Virus record (IMG/VR): IMGVR_UViG_3300046779_000460
Location: 1-32,944 of that record
Origin: a virus
Taxonomy: Duplodnaviria > Caudoviricetes
DNA length: 32,944 nt
Strand: one strand, 5' to 3'
Part shown: one piece after another, positions 12,566-25,599 of the stretch
How the letters are laid out: each line of letters starts with the position of its first letter
How positions within the stretch are numbered: position 1 is the stretch's first letter
Program-made: the position numbers and the translations under genes
The notes under the pieces: generated by a model
Seen by the model: the letters and a program-made list of their open reading frames with translations, nothing else
Told to the model about the DNA's origin: nothing
Databases searched by the model: none

Positions 12566-13930
12566 ATGAACTATCTTAGTGTTTGTAGTGGTGTTGAGGC
12601 GGCGACAGTAGCGTGGCATTCGTTAGGATGGCAACCTGTTGCATTTTCTGAAATTGAGTCATTTCCATCAGCAGTACTGGCTCATCATTATCCAAATGTT
12701 CCTAATCTTGGGGACATGACTAAATATAAGGAGTGGAATTTAAATGAATCAATTGACATTCTTGTTGGAGGAACTCCCTGCCAATCATTCTCAGTCGCAG
12801 GACTTCGTAAAGGACTTGAAGACCCACGAGGAAACCTCGCACTCACCTATGTTGGAATTCTTGACCGATTTAGACCCAAGTGGTTCATTTGGGAAAATGT
12901 GCCGGGTGTCCTCAGTTCAGGCGGTGGACGGGATTTTGGAGCCTTCCTCGGGGCGGTGGCTGAACTCGGGTATGGGTTCGCATACAGAGTGCTTGATGCT
13001 CAAAACTTCGGAGTCCCACAAAGGCGCAGAAGAGTGTTTGTTGTCGGACATCTTGGAGACTGGAAACCTGCAGCAGAAGTATTATTTGAGTCCGAAAGCC
13101 TGTCAGGGGATTTTAAATCGGGCCGCAAGACGAGGAAAAGTGTTACCGGTTTTGTTGAAAGTAGCTTTGGACAATATCGTGAAGATGTCATCGCAGGAAC
13201 AACCAAAGCCAGTGGAGGAGTCTTAGGTGGTGGTTCGGAAACATTCTATGTTGAAGACATTGCAAATTGTTTACAGACTACTTGTCATGAATGGAGCAGA
13301 GCAGATGGTTTTAACATGATTGCGTATGAAAACCATCCATCCGATAGCCGTGTTCAAGAGATGGGCGAAACCTGTCAGACTGTTACATCTACATGGGGAA
13401 CTGGCGGTGGTAACATTCCGTTCGTGCAGAATGTTTCGTATGCTTTACAGGGTGCAGGCGCAACAAGTCAAACTGGAAATGGGATGGGATATAAGGAAGA
13501 GCAGTCCTATACATTAAATACGACAGATGTACATGGTGTTGCGTTCGGTTGGCAAAACAGTTCCAACCAAAGTATGTCGGTGGATACTATTTCACCAACA
13601 TTGGATAAAAGCAAAACACCTGCGGTTGCAGTTCCATTGACAAATATTGTTGCACCAACTCTGACGGCATCCAATAACCCAAGTCGCTCACCGCAATCTA
13701 CTGAAGTCACTAATCAAGTGGCATCTGTCTATGCTGCAAGCACCGCAGTTCGTCGATTAACGCCTATAGAATGCGAACGATTACAGGGATTTCCTGATAA
13801 CTACACACAGATTCCTTGGAATAAGAAAGTTTCTGCTGACTGCCCGGATGGTTTGCGTTACAAAGCAATGGGTAACTCAATGGCTGTGCCTGTGATGAAC
13901 TGGATTGGCACACGCATTAATAATCTGTAA
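12566..13930 (+). CDS. C5 cytosine DNA methyltransferase
   Basis: Motif I variant SVCSGVEA, catalytic GGTPCQSFS, ENV, QRRRRVF, RRLTPIECERLQGFP and GNS; long variable region. Confidence 0.95.
   Translation: MNYLSVCSGVEAATVAWHSLGWQPVAFSEIESFPSAVLAHHYPNVPNLGDMTKYKEWNLNESIDILVGGTPCQSFSVAGLRKGLEDPRGNLALTYVGILDRFRPKWFIWENVPGVLSSGGGRDFGAFLGAVAELGYGFAYRVLDAQNFGVPQRRRRVFVVGHLGDWKPAAEVLFESESLSGDFKSGRKTRKSVTGFVESSFGQYREDVIAGTTKASGGVLGGGSETFYVEDIANCLQTTCHEWSRADGFNMIAYENHPSDSRVQEMGETCQTVTSTWGTGGGNIPFVQNVSYALQGAGATSQTGNGMGYKEEQSYTLNTTDVHGVAFGWQNSSNQSMSVDTISPTLDKSKTPAVAVPLTNIVAPTLTASNNPSRSPQSTEVTNQVASVYAASTAVRRLTPIECERLQGFPDNYTQIPWNKKVSADCPDGLRYKAMGNSMAVPVMNWIGTRINNL
12744..13226 (+). CDS. Overprinted +1-frame methyltransferase partner polypeptide (beta-subunit-like)
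   Basis: 160 aa with its own AAGGAG RBS at 12728-12733; contains LSDILE...KYYLSPKACQGILNRA, resembling a segment found in C5 methyltransferases. Confidence 0.75.
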   Translation: MNQLTFLLEELPANHSQSQDFVKDLKTHEETSHSPMLEFLTDLDPSGSFGKMCRVSSVQAVDGILEPSSGRWLNSGMGSHTECLMLKTSESHKGAEECLLSDILETGNLQQKYYLSPKACQGILNRAARRGKVLPVLLKVALDNIVKMSSQEQPKPVEES

Positions 13931-14353: not shown

Positions 14354-15936
14354 CTGAGAGTAAATTTTTATATCACATGGCTTGCGACGAGTGCGGTTCA
14401 AGCGATGGTAACGCTATGCACAGCGATGGACACACTTACTGCCATGTATGCCACACATACAAGGCTAGGACAGGTGAAATTACGAAAGATTACAAAAAAC
14501 CAATGAACAAGGAACTAAACTTTTATGACAATGCTTCTTCTCGTAGTATCGTTAATCGTGGTATTACTTCGGCTACTTGCGTAGCTTACGGCGTTAAACA
14601 GGATGATGGTAAACACTACTATCCCTACTACGACATTGATGGCAAGATGGTCGCTATTAAGACTAGATTGGTAGAAACCAAATCATTTAGCATTGCCGGT
14701 GACTTCAAAGAAGCCACACTCTTTGGGCAGAATTGTTTTACCAAATCAGGTCGATACTTAACTATCTGTGAGGGTGAACTAGACGCTCTGGCTGCTTATC
14801 AGATGCAAGGTAGTAAATATCCTTGTGTCAGTATCCGCAGTGGCGCTAGTGGCGCTCTGAAGGACTGTAAAGCAGAATACGAATGGATTGATTCTTTTGA
14901 GAATATTATCTTATCGTTTGATGCTGATGAACCCGGACAGAAAGCAGCACAGGCTGTCGCCGAGTTGTTTGGTGGCAAAGTTAAAATCATGAAACATAAG
15001 ACAGGATACAAAGATGCCTCTGATTATCTTGAAAATGATGCTAGTAAGGAATTTGTTGATACTTGGTGGGCTGCTGAATCTTACATACCTGATGGAATTA
15101 TTCAAGGTAACACCCTCTGGGAATTGGTATCGTCTCCTATTGAGAAAGCTGATTGTGACTATCCGTATGACGGCGTTAATAAACTCACATACGGCATTCG
15201 CAAAGGGGAACTTGTCATGGTCACAGCAGGCTCTGGTCTTGGCAAATCTCAGTTCTTACGAGAAATCGTTTGGCATATCCTTAACAAGACTAGTGACAAT
15301 GTCGGACTTATGTTTCTTGAAGAGGGAGTCCGCAAGACTGCTAGGTCGCTTATGTCTTTGGCGGTGAACAAACCCATTCACTTACCTGATGTTGAAGTTA
15401 CTTCTGAGGAGTTAAAAGATGCTTTTGATAGAACTTTGGGAACTGACCGCCTGTATTTGTTTGACCATTTTGGCAGCACTTCTTTGGAAAACATTGTCAA
15501 CCGAGTACGATATATGGCTAAAGGTCTTGGTTGTGGTTATGTCTTTCTTGACCATATTAGCATTATCGTTAGTGGCGGTGATGTTGGTGATGAACGGAAA
15601 GCTCTTGATGCCATCATGACTAAGCTACGCATGATTGTGCAAGAGACTGGCATCAGTTTGATTTGTGTCTCCCATCTCAAGCGTAACGAAGGTCGTGGAC
15701 ACGAGGAAGGCGCTGTTACATCCTTGGCACAGTTGCGTGGCTCAGGCGCTATTGCACAGCTCTCTGACATCGTCATAGGACTAGAGCGTAATGGACAGGC
15801 TGAAGATATGATTGAACGCAATACCACTAGTGTCAGGGTGCTGAAGAATCGATTTAGTGGATACACTGGCAATGCTGGCTCTTTGCTGTATAATGGACAA
15901 ACCGGAAGAATGTTAGAGATAAAGGACACACTATGA
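14350..15936 (+). CDS. T7 gp4-like DNA primase-helicase
   Basis: Zn finger CDEC...CHVC, TOPRIM motifs CEGELD and FDAD, Walker A AGSGLGKS, LDHIS, LRGSGAIAQLSD, KNRF; likely TTG start overlapping the upstream TGA. Confidence 0.95.
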   Translation: MTESKFLYHMACDECGSSDGNAMHSDGHTYCHVCHTYKARTGEITKDYKKPMNKELNFYDNASSRSIVNRGITSATCVAYGVKQDDGKHYYPYYDIDGKMVAIKTRLVETKSFSIAGDFKEATLFGQNCFTKSGRYLTICEGELDALAAYQMQGSKYPCVSIRSGASGALKDCKAEYEWIDSFENIILSFDADEPGQKAAQAVAELFGGKVKIMKHKTGYKDASDYLENDASKEFVDTWWAAESYIPDGIIQGNTLWELVSSPIEKADCDYPYDGVNKLTYGIRKGELVMVTAGSGLGKSQFLREIVWHILNKTSDNVGLMFLEEGVRKTARSLMSLAVNKPIHLPDVEVTSEELKDAFDRTLGTDRLYLFDHFGSTSLENIVNRVRYMAKGLGCGYVFLDHISIIVSGGDVGDERKALDAIMTKLRMIVQETGISLICVSHLKRNEGRGHEEGAVTSLAQLRGSGAIAQLSDIVIGLERNGQAEDMIERNTTSVRVLKNRFSGYTGNAGSLLYNGQTGRMLEIKDTL

Positions 15937-16870: not shown

Positions 16871-17241
16871 AACTGAATAACGATAATCGCTTTGATATTG
16901 ATTTGGAATATGGACAAATCTTTGAACAAAAGATTGCTGATATATTTCAGAGCAGTAAGATTGAAGTTAAAACTGAGCGAGATAAATGGAATTCTACCGG
17001 TAACATTGTGATTGAATTTGAGAGTCGTGGACATCCTAGTGGGATTGCTGTAACACAATCAGATTTCTGGTTTCATAATCTAGCATTGAATGGCGAACTA
17101 ATTATGACACTCGTGTTTCCTGTGGCGGTGCTAAAACGATATATCAAACAGAACAAACCAAGAGTGGTGCGTGGTGGTGATGATAATACTTCTAAATTAT
17201 ACTTGATTAATCTTGCAGACTTGTTTACAATAATAGAATGA
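16867..17241 (+). CDS. Putative PD-(D/E)xK nuclease-fold protein
   Basis: IEVKTE and TGNIVIEF motifs; immediately upstream of DNA polymerase. Confidence 0.6.
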   Translation: MKLNNDNRFDIDLEYGQIFEQKIADIFQSSKIEVKTERDKWNSTGNIVIEFESRGHPSGIAVTQSDFWFHNLALNGELIMTLVFPVAVLKRYIKQNKPRVVRGGDDNTSKLYLINLADLFTIIE

Positions 17242-18965
17242 GAATCGTTCTTGATATTGAAACCAACGCAGCACACGATAAGATTTGGTGTGTCGTTACT
17301 CGTAACATTGACAATGCGGAGGTGAAAGTATGGAAACATCCAGAAGGACTACAAAAGTATTTGGACTCTTGCACTTTGATTATAATGCACAACGGCATAA
17401 ACTTCGACGGTCCTGTTCTCAAGAAGAATTGGAAGATTACTATGAAGAAGACGCAAGTGTGCGATACGCTCGTAATAAGTCGTTTGTTTTCGCCAAGCAT
17501 CGAGTCTGGGCACTCACTACAAGCATGGGGTGAGCGTTTAGGATATTACAAAGCACCTTATAAAAAGATATGGTCTTGGATGACTAATAAGGCTTTAATT
17601 GTTGAAGATATTAAAGGTAAGAAAGTTGACCAAAGCAATTTAGCTTTTGACGAGCCTGTAATGTCAGCACTAGTGTGGTATTGCATACAGGACACACTAG
17701 TAACTCAAAAACTGTATGAACATTTAACCAAGGAGATGTCACATGACTATTCACAAGAAAGTATCAAACTCGAACACGAAGTCGCATTCATCATCGCAGA
17801 GCAAGAGCGAAATGGATTCCGATTCAATGAAGCTAAAGCTCTACAATTATTATCTGTTCTTAAAACTAAGCTGGACGCTATTTGCGTTGAAATGCAGAGC
17901 ATCTTTCCTGCCAAAGTCACATCTGGTCGCACCCATCAAACACATGGTAGACCCCTTCCCGACATCGTGGAAAACTTCAATCCCGGAAGCCGCAAGCAAA
18001 TCGCCGAAAGGCTCATCGAGAAGGGTTGGAAGCCGAGCAAGCTCACAGAAAAAGGCAGCATCATTGTCGACGAAACAACGCTCGAAGGCATCGACATCCC
18101 AGAAGCGAAAGCCATCGCTGAATACTTGATGTTACAAAAGCGGATAGCACAGGTTGAGAGTTGGATTGATGCTATTCAAATCGATGGTCGTGTGCATGGA
18201 CAGGTTATTACTAACGGCGCAGTTACTGGTCGTATGACCCACCACAGTCCTAACATGGCACAGGTTCCCAATAGTGGTAGTCCTTATGGACCAGACTGCA
18301 GAGAACTTTGGACAGTTAATAAAGGATATAAATTAGTTGGCATTGATGCAAGCGGTTTAGAGTTGCGAATGTTGGCTCATTATATGAAAGACGATGCGTA
18401 TACTACTGAAGTTGTATCAGGCGACATACACACAGCGAACCAAAAAGCAGCAGGGCTTGAGACAAGGAATCAAGCTAAGACTTTTATCTATGCATTCCTC
18501 TATGGTGCGGGAGCTGCCAAGATTGGGTCAATTGTTGGAGGTTCATCGAAAGAAGGACAAGCACTCATTACTCGTTTTCTACGCAACACGCCGGGGCTTA
18601 GAGCATTGCGGGAAAAAGTATCTCGTCTCTACTTTCAGAAAGCGTGGCTACCGGGTCTGGACGGACGCAAGTTACTCGTTCGCTCGGAGCATTCAGCGCT
18701 CAACACGCTATTGCAAGGCGCAGGTGCGATAGCAATGAAACAGGCACTGGTGATATTCAACAAGCGTTTACGCCAGTCAAAGATTGATTATAAGTTTGTA
18801 GCCAATGTCCATGATGAATGGCAGGTTGAAGTGGAAGAGAATCGTGCAGACGAAGTCGGTAAACTAGGTGTACAATCAATTACCGATGCTGGTGTAGTAT
18901 TAAAGATGCGCTGTCCGTTAAGCGGCGAATATCGTGTAGGTAACAACTGGAAAGAGACCCATTAA
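17238..18965 (+). CDS. Family A DNA polymerase with 3'-5' exonuclease (T7 gp5-like)
   Basis: Exo motifs LDIET, HNGINFD and YCIQD; motif A DASGLELR, motif B RNQAKTFIYAFLYG (Tyr at the Pol I 762-equivalent position), motif C VHDE. Confidence 0.97.
   Translation: MRIVLDIETNAAHDKIWCVVTRNIDNAEVKVWKHPEGLQKYLDSCTLIIMHNGINFDGPVLKKNWKITMKKTQVCDTLVISRLFSPSIESGHSLQAWGERLGYYKAPYKKIWSWMTNKALIVEDIKGKKVDQSNLAFDEPVMSALVWYCIQDTLVTQKLYEHLTKEMSHDYSQESIKLEHEVAFIIAEQERNGFRFNEAKALQLLSVLKTKLDAICVEMQSIFPAKVTSGRTHQTHGRPLPDIVENFNPGSRKQIAERLIEKGWKPSKLTEKGSIIVDETTLEGIDIPEAKAIAEYLMLQKRIAQVESWIDAIQIDGRVHGQVITNGAVTGRMTHHSPNMAQVPNSGSPYGPDCRELWTVNKGYKLVGIDASGLELRMLAHYMKDDAYTTEVVSGDIHTANQKAAGLETRNQAKTFIYAFLYGAGAAKIGSIVGGSSKEGQALITRFLRNTPGLRALREKVSRLYFQKAWLPGLDGRKLLVRSEHSALNTLLQGAGAIAMKQALVIFNKRLRQSKIDYKFVANVHDEWQVEVEENRADEVGKLGVQSITDAGVVLKMRCPLSGEYRVGNNWKETH
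17743..18129 (+). CDS. Probable overprinted +1-frame protein inside DNA polymerase
   Basis: AAGGAG RBS 7 nt before the ATG; local switch in polymerase codon usage matches the ORF boundaries. Confidence 0.55.
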   Translation: MTIHKKVSNSNTKSHSSSQSKSEMDSDSMKLKLYNYYLFLKLSWTLFALKCRASFLPKSHLVAPIKHMVDPFPTSWKTSIPEAASKSPKGSSRRVGSRASSQKKAASLSTKQRSKASTSQKRKPSLNT

Positions 18966-21173: not shown

Positions 21174-21907
21174 AAATCCTACTGCTTGATATTGAGTCAA
21201 GTCCGAACACAGCTCATGTGTGGGGTCTTTGGCAACAGAATGTCAGCATCAATCAGTTGATGGAGTCTTCTTATGTCCTATGCTACGCAGCCAAGTGGTT
21301 AGGACAAAAAGAAATACTGTTTGATTCTGTACACCAATCACGACCCAAGACAATGCTGAAAGGAATTCATGGGCTTCTCAACGATGCAGATGCTGTGGTT
21401 CATTACAATGGTACTAAGTTTGATATTCCTACTCTTAACAAGGAATTCTTACTACATCGTTTTAATCCACCATCGCCTTATAAACAAATTGACCTATTGC
21501 GTGTTGTTCGTAGCAACTTTAGGTTTCCTAGTAACAAGTTGGACTATGTAGCACAGCGTTTAGGACTCGGTAAGAAACACGAACACGAAGGACATGAGTT
21601 GTGGGTCAAGTGCATGAACGGAGATAAAGATGCTTGGAAGCGTATGGAAAAGTACAATATACAAGATGTCGTTTTACTTGAGTCGTTGTACAGCACTCTT
21701 CTTCCTTGGGTTAAGTCTCATCCTAATCACAATCTCTTCTTGGATGGACATCATTGCCCTAACTGTGCTTCGGAGAATCTGCAAAGACGAGGCACTGCTA
21801 TATCTACTACAGGAGCGTATCAACGCTATCAATGCCGGGATTGCGGAACTTGGTCGCAAGGAACGAAGTCAATTAAAAAGTCAGCAGAGGTAAAGTATCA
21901 TGGATAA
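21164..21907 (+). CDS. DnaQ/RNase H-fold 3'-5' exonuclease with C-terminal zinc ribbon
   Basis: LDIE, HYNGTKFD and YNIQDV exo motifs; CPNC...CRDC. Confidence 0.85.
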   Translation: MVLKILLLDIESSPNTAHVWGLWQQNVSINQLMESSYVLCYAAKWLGQKEILFDSVHQSRPKTMLKGIHGLLNDADAVVHYNGTKFDIPTLNKEFLLHRFNPPSPYKQIDLLRVVRSNFRFPSNKLDYVAQRLGLGKKHEHEGHELWVKCMNGDKDAWKRMEKYNIQDVVLLESLYSTLLPWVKSHPNHNLFLDGHHCPNCASENLQRRGTAISTTGAYQRYQCRDCGTWSQGTKSIKKSAEVKYHG

Positions 21908-22319: not shown

Positions 22320-24227
22320 ATGACAGAATATAAGATGAGTCCCTACAATACCTTTATTGCTAAATCACGATACAGTCGCTATCTTGACGATAAAGGTCGC
22401 AGAGAACACTGGAGTGAAACAGTAGCACGATACTTTGACTTTATGACAGAGCATCTCAAGACCAAACAGAACTACACACTATCGCCTGAGTTACGCAAAG
22501 AATTAGAAACTGCTGTTGTTAATCTTGAAGTAGTGCCGTCTATGAGAGCTGTGATGACAGCAGGACCAGCACTAGAGCGTCAGAATGTCGCAGCATTTAA
22601 CTGTTCATATTTACCAATCGATGACCCCAAAGCCTTTGACGAAGCAATGTACATTCTTCTCTGTGGCACTGGTGTCGGCTTTTCTGTGGAGCAGCAATAT
22701 GTTTCTAAACTACCTGAAGTCCCAGAGCAGTTGTTTGCTAGTCAGACTACTATTGTGGTGTCGGATTCTAAAGAAGGATGGGCTAAATCACTTAGACAGC
22801 TCATTGCTTTACTGTATTCTGGTGAAGTTCCAAGGTACGACTTATCCAAAGTTAGACCTGCCGGAGCTAGACTCAAAGTATTCGGAGGTCGTGCTTCTGG
22901 ACCCGGACCTTTGGAAGAGCTTTTTAAGTTCACTATTGCCAAGTTTAGAGGGGCAGTTGGTCGTCGTTTGTCGTCCATTGAGTGTCATGATATTCTGTGC
23001 AAAATCGGGGAAGTTGTTGTTGTGGGTGGAGTCAGACGGAGTGCAATGATTTCCTTGTCTGATTTGTCAGACGACAAGATGGCACACGCTAAAGCAGGTA
23101 ACTGGTGGGACGGTCAAGGACAACGAGCCTTAGCCAATAACTCTGCTACCTATGCTGAAACACCTAGTATCGGTCAGTTTATGCGTGAATGGTCAAGTAT
23201 CTATGAATCACACTCTGGAGAGCGAGGTATATTTAATCGTGAAGCATCTCAGAAACAGGCAGCAAAGAATGGTCGCAGAGACGAAACCTATGCTTTTGGC
23301 ACTAACCCTTGTAGCGAAATCATTCTTCGTCCTTATCAGTTTTGTAATCTTTCCAGTTGTATTGTGCGTAGCTACGATACTGTATCTACCTTGGAGAATA
23401 AAGTCCGCTTGGCAACGATTTTGGGAACCTTCCAAGCATCGCTAACAGAGTTTCCTTACCTGCGTAAGATTTGGGAAAAGAACACCAAAGAAGAGGCGCT
23501 ATTGGGTGTGTCTATGACCGGTATCTGTGACAATGAACTACTGAATAATCCTGATGATGAAGACTTACCTGCTCGATTGGAGAGACTAAGAGATGTTGCT
23601 ATCACTACTAACATTGAATTTGCTGCAACTATTGGTATTAATCAGTCTGTGGCGGTTACTGCTATCAAACCAGAGGGAACAGTTTCTCAGCTTTGCAGTA
23701 CTGCTTCTGGGATTCATCCTCAACATAGCAAGTATTACATACGCCGTGTTCGGGCTGATAACAAAGACCCATTAACACAGTTTATGCTCTCCTCTGGCTT
23801 TGTCGGTGAGCCTTGCTATCTAAAACCAGACTCTACTACTGTCTTTAGCTTTCCTGTAAAGGTAGACGATGGTGGACTATTGCGTGAAGACTTAACTGCG
23901 ATTCAGCACTTACGGCTTTGGTTATTGTTCCAACGGCATTACTGTGAACATAAACCATCTGTTACCATCTCAGTGCGTGAAGATGAGTGGATGGATGTTG
24001 GGGCGTGGGTGTATCGCCACTTCGATGAAGTAACTGGAGTGTCTTTCCTACCAATGGATGGTGGCACTTATAAACAAGCGCCTTACGAGGAATGTGATGA
24101 GGAGACTTATAACAAGTTAAAAGCCTTGGTTCCCAATGCCGTAGACTGGGAGAACTTCAAAGAGTATGACGATAATGTGGAAGGCGCTCAGACTTTGAGC
24201 TGTACTGCAGGCGGATGTGAGATTTAA
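22320..24227 (+). CDS. nrdJ: Class II (adenosylcobalamin-dependent) ribonucleotide reductase, monomeric RTPR type
   Basis: FNCSY, TNPCSEI, FCNLS, IKPEGTVSQL and C-terminal CTAGGCEI; no beta-subunit gene adjacent. Confidence 0.93.
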   Translation: MTEYKMSPYNTFIAKSRYSRYLDDKGRREHWSETVARYFDFMTEHLKTKQNYTLSPELRKELETAVVNLEVVPSMRAVMTAGPALERQNVAAFNCSYLPIDDPKAFDEAMYILLCGTGVGFSVEQQYVSKLPEVPEQLFASQTTIVVSDSKEGWAKSLRQLIALLYSGEVPRYDLSKVRPAGARLKVFGGRASGPGPLEELFKFTIAKFRGAVGRRLSSIECHDILCKIGEVVVVGGVRRSAMISLSDLSDDKMAHAKAGNWWDGQGQRALANNSATYAETPSIGQFMREWSSIYESHSGERGIFNREASQKQAAKNGRRDETYAFGTNPCSEIILRPYQFCNLSSCIVRSYDTVSTLENKVRLATILGTFQASLTEFPYLRKIWEKNTKEEALLGVSMTGICDNELLNNPDDEDLPARLERLRDVAITTNIEFAATIGINQSVAVTAIKPEGTVSQLCSTASGIHPQHSKYYIRRVRADNKDPLTQFMLSSGFVGEPCYLKPDSTTVFSFPVKVDDGGLLREDLTAIQHLRLWLLFQRHYCEHKPSVTISVREDEWMDVGAWVYRHFDEVTGVSFLPMDGGTYKQAPYEECDEETYNKLKALVPNAVDWENFKEYDDNVEGAQTLSCTAGGCEI

Positions 24228-24315: not shown

Positions 24316-24750
24316 CTAAGCAAACGGACGAGTGCCATTCTTGTCAATAATTAGGGCTTGTCTACGAGGCTTATCAGCAATAGCGTTAGGAACGCTTATA
24401 TGAGTCCAAGAGCCGAATTCTTCAATGATTTGGTCAAAGGGTATGTCCGATGCCAAACACGCCTCTACGACCTGTTTAGGGGTCATTCCGGGGACTCTTA
24501 AATCAGCAGCACAACCTATCCTATGTTGGCTAGTATCCTTGCTACCGACGGAGTCATTGACTGGTTTAGACCTAAAGCCTGAGTTAATCATAATAGGCTT
24601 GTTTAGGAGACTTCTAACTTGCTCTAGCAAGGCTGCCAATCGGGTTAGATTAGCAATCTCGGTAGCGTTAGGAGTATTATCTAGGTTCTTTCGCTCTGCT
24701 ACTTCAGAGTGGGTTAGTTCTTCTAAGGTGAAATTAGGGCTTAGGTTCAT
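24316..24750 (-). CDS. Endolysin, peptidase M15 family
   Basis: INSGFRS, SQH..G.AAD and WTHIS zinc-peptidase motifs; next to the holin. Confidence 0.88.
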   Translation of the reverse strand: MNLSPNFTLEELTHSEVAERKNLDNTPNATEIANLTRLAALLEQVRSLLNKPIMINSGFRSKPVNDSVGSKDTSQHRIGCAADLRVPGMTPKQVVEACLASDIPFDQIIEEFGSWTHISVPNAIADKPRRQALIIDKNGTRPFA

Positions 24751-25147
24751 CTTTGCCTTTCTTCATATCCATTATCTTCTCTAGCGTACGCCCACCGAAA
24801 TAGAAGGACATAATCAACATTCCCCATTGACCTAGGAGTTCAACATAGTTGTTGTTGACTTCTATATCCCACGCTGACATCGTAGCGAATGCTGAGTAGA
24901 CAAACAGAATAAATACTAAAGTCATGGGTCTTATGTTTTTAGACAACCAAGAGTCCGAAGCCATGTCTGCTTCATGTCGCTTAGTGAGTTCCTGTGCCTC
25001 AATGTTATCAGCCTGTAACTCAGCTAGTTTGCCTTCTTGTTGCATCTGCAGTAACTCTTTCTGAGCCTTAGCCTTTGCTTCAGGGTCAGGAATGAACTTA
25101 TCCAAGACCTTCATACCTACATCGAACAGCGCCATTAATGGTAACAT
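24734..25147 (-). CDS. Holin (GTA holin 3TM-like)
   Basis: DKFIPDP, SWLSKNIRP, two hydrophobic helices and FYFGGRTLEK. Confidence 0.8.
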   Translation of the reverse strand: MLPLMALFDVGMKVLDKFIPDPEAKAKAQKELLQMQQEGKLAELQADNIEAQELTKRHEADMASDSWLSKNIRPMTLVFILFVYSAFATMSAWDIEVNNNYVELLGQWGMLIMSFYFGGRTLEKIMDMKKGKDEPKP

Positions 25148-25599
25148 TATTGTTTATACCCCCAAGTTAAATACCAAGCAATGACCGCAGCCACCGCATA
25201 GCACATGAACATTGCTCTACGAACCTTTGCCAAATCATGGTGAAACTCTTTAGTAAGTTCATTATCTTGTTTCTCTATCTTTTGTTTAATGGATTCAATC
25301 TCAGACCAGCGTTTAGCGCCGTGTTTCTTAATGAAATCAGCCTTGACTTTAGCTTCCTCGACACGGATGGATTCTTGGTGTTGCCATTCCATCATGGCTC
25401 TTTTGAAGTACTGCTCTTTAAAGACCTGTGATTCCCGTATTTGCCGTCTACGCTCTAAGTCTTTCTGCTGGGCTACTGCTCCAGCGTCCTTCTGTACATC
25501 AATAATGCTCTTGGTAATGGACTTACTAGCCTCACGACTAGCATCCATGCTACCTGTTACGGATTTTGCTCCTTCGATAAAACCAAATTGGTCGGACAT
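25147..25599 (-). CDS. Coiled-coil protein with C-terminal transmembrane helix
   Basis: 150 aa; AMFMCYAVAAVIAWYLTW; coupled to the holin start. Confidence 0.7.
   Translation of the reverse strand: MSDQFGFIEGAKSVTGSMDASREASKSITKSIIDVQKDAGAVAQQKDLERRRQIRESQVFKEQYFKRAMMEWQHQESIRVEEAKVKADFIKKHGAKRWSEIESIKQKIEKQDNELTKEFHHDLAKVRRAMFMCYAVAAVIAWYLTWGYKQ

Follow-up and report, generated by a model that had tools for sequence, protein, structure and literature searches.

The E gene of phage phiX174, which is embedded out of frame in gene D, encodes a hydrophobic product. In T7, genes 4.1 and 4.2 are +1-frame ORFs of 40 and 112 aa inside gene 4, the primase-helicase gene, and both are annotated as hypothetical (NC_001604). 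The Rz1 gene of lambda is nested in Rz, and the spanin-less podophage phiKT produces gp28, a cationic amphipathic peptide of 56 aa, according to one report (10.1101/515445). The beta chain of M.EcoHK31I, as described in PMC2836561, is encoded wholly in another frame of the enzyme gene, supplies motif IX, and is required. Overprinted proteins of eukaryotic viruses are characterized, in PMC8227390, by a distribution restricted in comparison with the widespread ancestral frame, richness in disorder, accessory roles, and deviant codon usage. The nested frame considered here, designated ORF1, lies within the DNA polymerase gene of a tailed phage and, judging from the sequence comparisons described below, very probably represents a real, translated gene.

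The window, i.e., the whole stretch of DNA analyzed, is a virus record of 32.9 kb whose minus strand carries podovirus-type structural genes and whose plus strand carries a replication module comprising genes for a C5 methyltransferase, a primase-helicase, a family A DNA polymerase, an SSB, exonucleases, and a class II ribonucleotide reductase. The T7-like family A polymerase, a protein of 575 aa with a 3'-5' exonuclease part, is encoded at 17238-18965 (plus strand) and matches PF00476 (E 7e-50) and phrog_17. When it is aligned with T7 gp5 (1skr), the thioredoxin-binding insert proves to be mostly missing, and the ORF1 span maps to the thumb and the end of the exonuclease part of gp5. A role of ORF1 as a substitute for the basic loop of the T7 thioredoxin-binding domain was considered and dropped: the polymerase keeps a loop-like segment and has relatives without ORF1. 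T7 gene 5 (L334:2954-5068) itself contains a +1 open stretch of 116 codons (258-373) over the thioredoxin-binding domain. Sequence near-identical to the window is contained in freshwater sequencing runs. The closest match from a bacterial bin is a Burkholderiaceae MAG contig (80%), in which ORF1 is intact, and another bin match is assigned to Terrimicrobiaceae; mis-binning is possible in both cases. Contigs from RNA libraries also span the ORF1 region (X3, 17731-18744, with 72 of 1014 letters different), from which strand, level, and translation are not readable.

ORF1 occupies 17743-18129 of the plus strand, wholly inside the polymerase gene and in its +1 frame (polymerase codons 169-297), and encodes 128 aa with a pI of 10.6, 25 Lys plus Arg residues, and 28 Ser residues. 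A Shine-Dalgarno (SD)-like AAGGAG at 17730-17735 (+), coinciding with polymerase codons K165-E166, stands 7 nt upstream of the nested ATG, exactly as the earlier note on this DNA had read it. The product begins with a Ser/Lys-rich arm predicted to be mostly disordered (residues 1-28; 17827 being the first position beyond it, with the arm at 17743-17826, +), continues with an aromatic amphipathic helix that is its most constrained part (residues 29-55, polymerase codons 197-223; 17827-17907, +), and ends with a Ser/Thr/Lys-rich arm, also predicted to be disordered (17908-18126, +), whose end falls at codons 275-297 depending on the clade. The earlier note had further described a switch to C-ending codons, and every element of that description was reproduced: the Ile codons within ORF1 are ATC in 11 cases of 13 and ATT in 2, compared with ATT 9, ATA 4, and ATC 2 downstream; third-position C amounts to 0.35 within ORF1 versus 0.17 on either flank; a T-rich stretch occupies the center (codons ~193-225); and the shift stops at the nested stop codon, beyond which T-ending codons resume. 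When synonymous codons were resampled over polymerase codons 181-274, which served as the null for +1-frame stops, none of 2000 resamplings of the window gene was stop-free, 5.8 stops were expected, and C3 was elevated (z = +5.0). The longest +1 open run in the window polymerase extends over 133 codons, whereas the median under the null is 50 (P = 0.003). Taken by itself, the AAGGAG motif of the window does not significantly exceed what the polymerase residues would lead one to expect (P = 0.13), and the weight of the SD match therefore comes from the cross-clade comparison.

Relatives were collected by scans that each gave the best 80 of ~2000-2400 stretches, and the starting set of 100 loci, minus 7 duplicates and 2 rows missing the core, gave 92 genes including the window. 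Among the matches listed, 61 of these 92 genes lack any +1 stop between codons 181 and 274, although 5.2 stops are expected in each and the highest probability of finding none is 0.0115; the remaining 31 have 4.9 stops versus 5.4 expected. Fifteen of the open loci were retrieved with the nested protein itself, and when only loci retrieved with the polymerase are considered, 45 of 76 among the matches listed are open. One clade of 53 rows (SH-aLRT 99) is entirely open, and two more open groups are found in the sister clade amid closed lineages. An enlarged set contained 243 distinct genes, 234 of which cover the core; among these listed matches, the frame is open in all 57 genes with a polymerase identity of at least 65%, in 11 of 93 at 55-65%, in 2 of 37 at 50-55%, and in 5 of 47 below that, leaving 159 of the 234 closed. 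The counts are not independent events because the loci are related. The five open genes below 50% identity are GC-rich and lack the helix, and L279-L281, which are open but without the aromatic helix, were excluded from the ORF1 set. Twenty-nine ORF1-bearing representatives of <90% identity, to be compared with 48 closed genes, contain no stop across 381 at-risk cells. The null is calibrated, since structural genes and all other polymerase regions except that of ORF2 (see below) show stops at about or above expectation, and the loss of stops has sharp borders. The frame is closed in HTVC103P, CRP-804, HTVC019P, and T7.

The start of ORF1 occupies three positions depending on the clade, an ATG at codon 169, a TTG at codon 178, and an ATG at codon 180 directly after a stop. 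The protein varies from 103 to 128 aa across clades, and with a start at codon 178 or 180 the N-terminal arm is 9-11 residues shorter. In every clade the start is preceded by AGGAG or AAGGG at 7-10 nt. Of 60 open loci, 59 possess a start whose pairing to a generic anti-SD motif is at least as strong as -5 kcal/mol; of 31 closed loci, 3 do. For single loci, the significance of the SD site given the polymerase residues reaches P 0.00-0.04 in some clades and is absent in others. The frame and its start are thus kept in the close relatives, in which the earlier note had proposed to look for their loss.

Apart from these counts, L057, L148, and L078 (codons 160-244) contain shortened frames that have lost the tail and keep the aromatic helix up to codon 240-244; the probability of a stop-free frame is ~0.05 for each, and three unrelated closed loci score equally low, which makes these frames only a hint. 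Another clade, comprising L159-L166, L239-L256, and kin (32 loci), has a +1 open stretch of 66 codons (codons 192-258), in which 2.6 stops are expected; with a median identity of 88% and having been chosen for being open, it was excluded from the counts. Some of its loci have GAGGAG upstream of an ATG, and the stretch may represent a short nested gene of its own.

Selection on the product can be followed at the polymerase wobble base, which falls in the middle of each nested codon and so determines how hydrophobic the nested residue is. This base is fixed or nearly fixed as T in the helix and is predominantly C in the arms. At codon 201 it is T in 29/29 representatives versus 19/48 closed genes, and at codon 210 it is T in 28/29 despite a variable polymerase residue. 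C is found at codon 255 in 25/29 versus 0/48 and at codon 259 in 25/29 versus 3/48. Measured against resampling that already forbids stops, hydrophobicity of the helix is raised in 27 of the 29 representatives, the two others being L038 and L042 (z -0.3 and -0.5); Ser/Thr in the arms is above the null in all 29 (mean z +3.4), and hydrophobic residues in the arms are above it in none (mean z -3.2). Closed genes display none of these shifts. When synonymous divergence is expressed as a fraction of that in free regions, ORF1-bearing genes show 0.05-0.72 in the helix and 0.25-0.82 in the core, as against 0.83-1.58 and 0.99-1.40, respectively, in genes without ORF1. Synonymous-site constraint, which the earlier note had named as a check, is accordingly present where the nested frame exists and absent where it does not.

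The AlphaFold (AF2) model of the ORF1 protein contains a single helix at residues 19-54, with pLDDT >90 at 31-50, followed by a short turn, and the rest is mostly low-confidence coil. On a helical wheel, aromatic and aliphatic residues form a continuous hydrophobic face at 0-80 degrees with a Lys/Arg edge at 100-140 degrees, and codons 210, 214, and 217 form a second, smaller hydrophobic stripe. The Wimley-White interface sum is -3.7 versus +1.3 in closed frames and is favorable in 25 of 29 representatives versus 13 of 48 closed frames; the hydrophobic moment of the window copy is modest (0.21, versus a mean of 0.32). The residue class is conserved in the helix as Phe, Tyr, Trp, and Leu interchange, but such swaps are not free evidence because the polymerase fixes the first and third bases of the nested codons. 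The helix is no conserved transmembrane segment: the best 17-residue Kyte-Doolittle mean is 0.97 in the window and 0.87 on average. The first Cys is located at residue 51 after a hydrophilic N terminus, and a lipobox scan did not pick ORF1.

Searches for relatives of the protein, whose sensitivity is limited by its low complexity, returned only the overlap itself. When 1.84 billion representatives were searched with a profile, 10 proteins matched, and 5.8 billion clusters yielded two called proteins; all of these fit the +1 reading of polymerases (P0009 via the tail only), and no stand-alone or named homologue was among the profile-search hits. Pfam and PHROG contain no family for ORF1 or for the nested frames ORF2 and ORF3 described below, the ESM Atlas yielded nothing for the whole ORF1 protein or its residues 20-65, Foldseek against viral models found nothing at E <=0.001, and neither ORF1 nor ORF2 had a tblastn match in cultured phages. 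None of the Pfam, PHROG, ESM Atlas, Foldseek, and profile searches supplied a homologue of known function in support of any mechanism. A literature search, in which few subscription papers were covered, found no publication describing ORF1, and the word “overlap” is absent from the main text of 10.1101/2019.12.14.876532. Because every database hit is the same nested frame, ORF1 is considered to have arisen by overprinting, and the polymerase frame, as the ancestral one, is more widely distributed than the ORF1 frame. The de novo origin suggested in the earlier note agrees with both observations.

With middling confidence, we propose from the predicted helix that ORF1 encodes an accessory protein that binds the surface of the inner membrane, and the earlier suggestion of a membrane-associated product fits an amphipathic surface helix of this kind. 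The gene would have been born de novo via overprinting of the polymerase gene. Ribosomes would initiate internally on the replication-gene mRNA at the ribosome-binding site of ORF1 itself, so that the protein would be made together with the polymerase. The helix would lie against the host inner membrane on its cytoplasmic side, its aromatic face inserted in the lipid interface with Lys/Arg at the edges, and the arms, soluble and disordered, might serve as spacers. Once bound there, the protein might act as a non-essential host-takeover factor that counters, e.g., superinfection or some host process tied to the membrane.

A chain that is disordered apart from one hydrophobic helix could equally bind a protein, and the second hydrophobic stripe suggests burial on two sides. 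In the main rival reading, which is rather less likely, ORF1 is a real gene but its helix binds one protein partner. This would be either a host target, the protein then being an inhibitor or anti-defence factor like products of small class II genes of T7, or the phage replication proteins, in the way that the M.EcoHK31I beta chain attaches to the alpha chain. A single folding helix in a disordered chain, as predicted for ORF1, is the usual shape of a binding motif. ORF1 also lies among replication genes, where T7 has the inhibitors 5.5 and 5.9, and the same window holds a nested methyltransferase partner chain. Eleven viral overlaps have directly interacting products, according to PMC8227390. 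On the other hand, the aromatic residues, the flanking Lys/Arg, and the free swaps among them fit a lipid interface. As to the polymerase, relatives with the same short-thumb enzyme are without ORF1, and the enzyme therefore does not need it. Complex prediction of the polymerase, with an alignment of the window and ORF1-lacking relatives, and ORF1 residues 15-70 gave a score of 0.01 versus a mark of 0.32, a result that counts neither for nor against an interaction.

The surface-binding reading should also be weighed against a role in lysis, at which the earlier note had hinted. The lysis cassette of the window (24316-25599, minus strand) comprises genes for an M15 endolysin, a holin of a three-TM family, and a protein of 150 aa whose C-terminal part includes a hydrophobic segment, and no spanin is evident in it, in agreement with the earlier note. 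In relatives, a lysozyme and another holin are exchanged into the cassette. An outer-membrane disruptor that replaces spanins in the manner of phiKT gp28 would suit the predicted cationic amphipathic helix, and a crude scan found no convincing lipoprotein in 10 ORF1-bearing genomes; the same scan, however, found none in 10 ORF1-lacking genomes either. Moreover, ORF1 resides in the replication module, outside the lysis cassette, and the same cassette is present in phages with and without it (G003 versus G004 and G005; the window versus G019), which weakens the case for lysis. Such a disruptor appears improbable, and the hint at lysis, with no lipobox in ORF1 either, has fared poorly.

It is quite improbable that the main job of the protein is to bind or condense nucleic acids through its basic arms, nucleic-acid binding being the other function offered in the earlier note. 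The pI and the excess of 25 Lys and Arg over 5 Asp and Glu would favor it, as would the preference for Lys over Arg at columns 189, 254, and 279. The net charge, however, is below the null (mean z -1.2) and higher than it in only 5/29 representatives, and the +1 frame of closed genes is almost as basic (+12) as that of ORF1-bearing genes (+14); the basic charge is the default of the frame and is not selected. In addition, the tail differs by 22 residues in length, and the constraint is centered on the helix. The overprinted gene of the earlier note thus stands, whereas neither of these two functions gained much ground.

A single-pass membrane lysis protein or holin resembling phiX174 E is very improbable. 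On the octanol scale, the best 19-mer in the clade of the window attains a borderline -8.7 kcal/mol, but other sums range up to +0.2, the 17-residue Kyte-Doolittle mean reaches 1.6 in none of the 29 representatives, codons 200-217 hold 1-5 charged residues in every one of them, and the phage already has a holin and an endolysin.

We regard it as equally remote that there is no second gene and that the codon shift is due to chance, to a patch acquired by recombination, or to a signal in the RNA or DNA. Recombination within the region does occur, as L010:2970-3320 and L012:2970-3308 encode a middle segment of the nested protein that matches the clade of the window and not their own, and ORF1-bearing rows group more tightly in a tree of the overlap only (28 tips) than outside the overlap (40 tips). 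A GC-richer donor, which the earlier note had put forward as a possible cause of the shift, is excluded because G3 decreases (0.18 versus 0.23) as C3 increases (0.27 versus 0.17). The pattern also recurs down to 58% polymerase identity, the stop loss is sharply bordered with observed stops at or above expectation elsewhere, the start has no strong RNA structure (z 0.64), and a promoter scan found no excess (9 sites versus 9.0 expected). A programmed +1 shift that yields a fusion of the exonuclease and the tail is the least credible reading, since every clade has its own start and SD-like site, often directly after a +1 stop, and the single record that would suit it, a polymerase piece joined to the C-terminal part of ORF1 (P0007), is more easily accounted for by a frameshift introduced during sequencing or assembly.

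ORF1 is accompanied by other nested frames. ORF2, a second +1 ORF of 112 aa in the polymerase gene (18394-18732, plus strand; codons 386-497) that the earlier note does not mention, is free of stops in all 29 ORF1-bearing representatives (5.3 expected) and open in 29 of the 48 ORF1-lacking ones, which average 1.35 stops versus 5.7 expected. Among the matches listed, it is open over codons 390-480 in 164 of 241 genes, including that of the cultured phage HTVC103P. It is more widespread than ORF1, and the profiles of the two are unrelated to each other. Eighty-eight unnamed gene calls match the ORF2 profile, all being +1 readings of polymerases. The copies are basic in the freshwater type and acidic and helical in the HTVC103P type (e.g., L101:2615-2911); the ribosome-binding site is weak in the clade of the window, synonymous divergence is not reduced in ORF1-lacking genes (1.02-1.23), and the predicted model is of low confidence (mean pLDDT 47). 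A third nested +1 ORF (ORF3; 22699-23049, plus strand), Leu-rich and 116 aa long, lies in the class II ribonucleotide reductase gene, where codons 126-225 contain 3 stops versus 40 expected in ~10 representatives, with an ATG at codon 127, GGAG upstream of it, and a stop at codon 243 in 13 of 14 covering rows. The sole genome with this reductase frame closed, G017, is also the only one that has an i-spanin-like gene beside the endolysin (L324:5235-5702), which is a single case. A nested +1 ORF at 12744-13226 (+) in the C5 methyltransferase gene (12566-13930) matches methyltransferase PHROGs 16143 and 1008 and represents the alpha/beta arrangement of M.EcoHK31I in a phage. A +1 ORF of 117 aa in the primase-helicase gene (15014-15367, +) is open in the window, L020, G007, G001, and G021 and closed in most relatives, and is doubtful or clade-limited. 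The RNase H-like exonuclease gene contains out-of-frame hydrophobic ORFs at 21630-21893 and 21369-21551 (+) that are common to 5-6 ORF1-bearing genomes. One tentative, and on the whole unlikely, view is that the +1 frames of core replication enzymes act as a gene nursery in which nested frames form a hidden, membrane-acting toolkit. ORF2, in the fingers region, would then be older, ORF1, in the thumb region, younger, and the reductase frame a third member, all three escaping gene callers, and the toolkit, locked to essential genes, might serve host takeover and possibly outer-membrane lysis in spanin-less phages.

The locus allows the birth of a gene by overprinting to be studied comparatively in tailed phages: the start sites have moved between clades, the protein family is without an outside homologue, and sister lineages that have or lack the gene provide controls. 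About 42% of the polymerase gene (240/575 codons) is apparently read twice, which bears on viral ecology wherever codon statistics and synonymous rates of family A polymerases are taken as neutral markers. Approximately 2400 stored stretches match the polymerase patterns, and because gene callers miss nested genes (two called in 5.8 billion clusters), an abundant phage group may carry several unannotated accessory proteins. No cultured phage carrying ORF1 was found by tblastn against cultured phages; the idea of nested genes is directly testable because ORF2 is open in the cultured HTVC103P.

Among the systems described at the outset, M.EcoHK31I beta resembles ORF1 in being encoded wholly within another frame of an enzyme gene, but the polymerase is complete alone, and 31 of 92 related full polymerases among the matches listed lack ORF1. 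As with the overprinted proteins of eukaryotic viruses, ORF1 is restricted in distribution, rich in disorder, accessory, and deviant in codon usage; it differs from them in belonging to a tailed dsDNA phage, in being one of two nested frames in a single polymerase gene, and in showing no sequence relation. ORF1 is small and has a predicted cationic amphipathic helix in a phage without evident spanins, as does phiKT gp28, which in contrast is a separate gene in a lysis cassette; ORF1 encodes 103-128 aa, is predicted to be mostly disordered, is nested in a replication gene, and is missing from relatives having the same lysis cassette. Full embedding out of frame and a hydrophobic part in the product are shared with phiX174 E and Rz1, but ORF1 has no lipobox, signal peptide, or conserved transmembrane segment, and its host gene is a polymerase. 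An o-spanin of the Rz1 type would carry a lipobox Cys signal and be embedded in or beside an i-spanin gene, and ORF1 has neither property. T7 4.1 and 4.2 likewise are +1 ORFs of a T7-like phage, nested in a gene that is essential for replication, although the host gene of ORF1 is the polymerase gene and T7 4.2 extends beyond the end of gene 4. ORF1 has no similarity to T7 4.2 (E 9.5), and T7 gene 5 has +1 stops in both of the regions that are open in the window polymerase. That replication genes of T7-like phages can harbor nested +1 genes is thus already known from T7 4.1 and 4.2, and what is new in comparison with these systems is the ORF1 protein family, its location in a family A polymerase gene, and the doubling of the nested frames.
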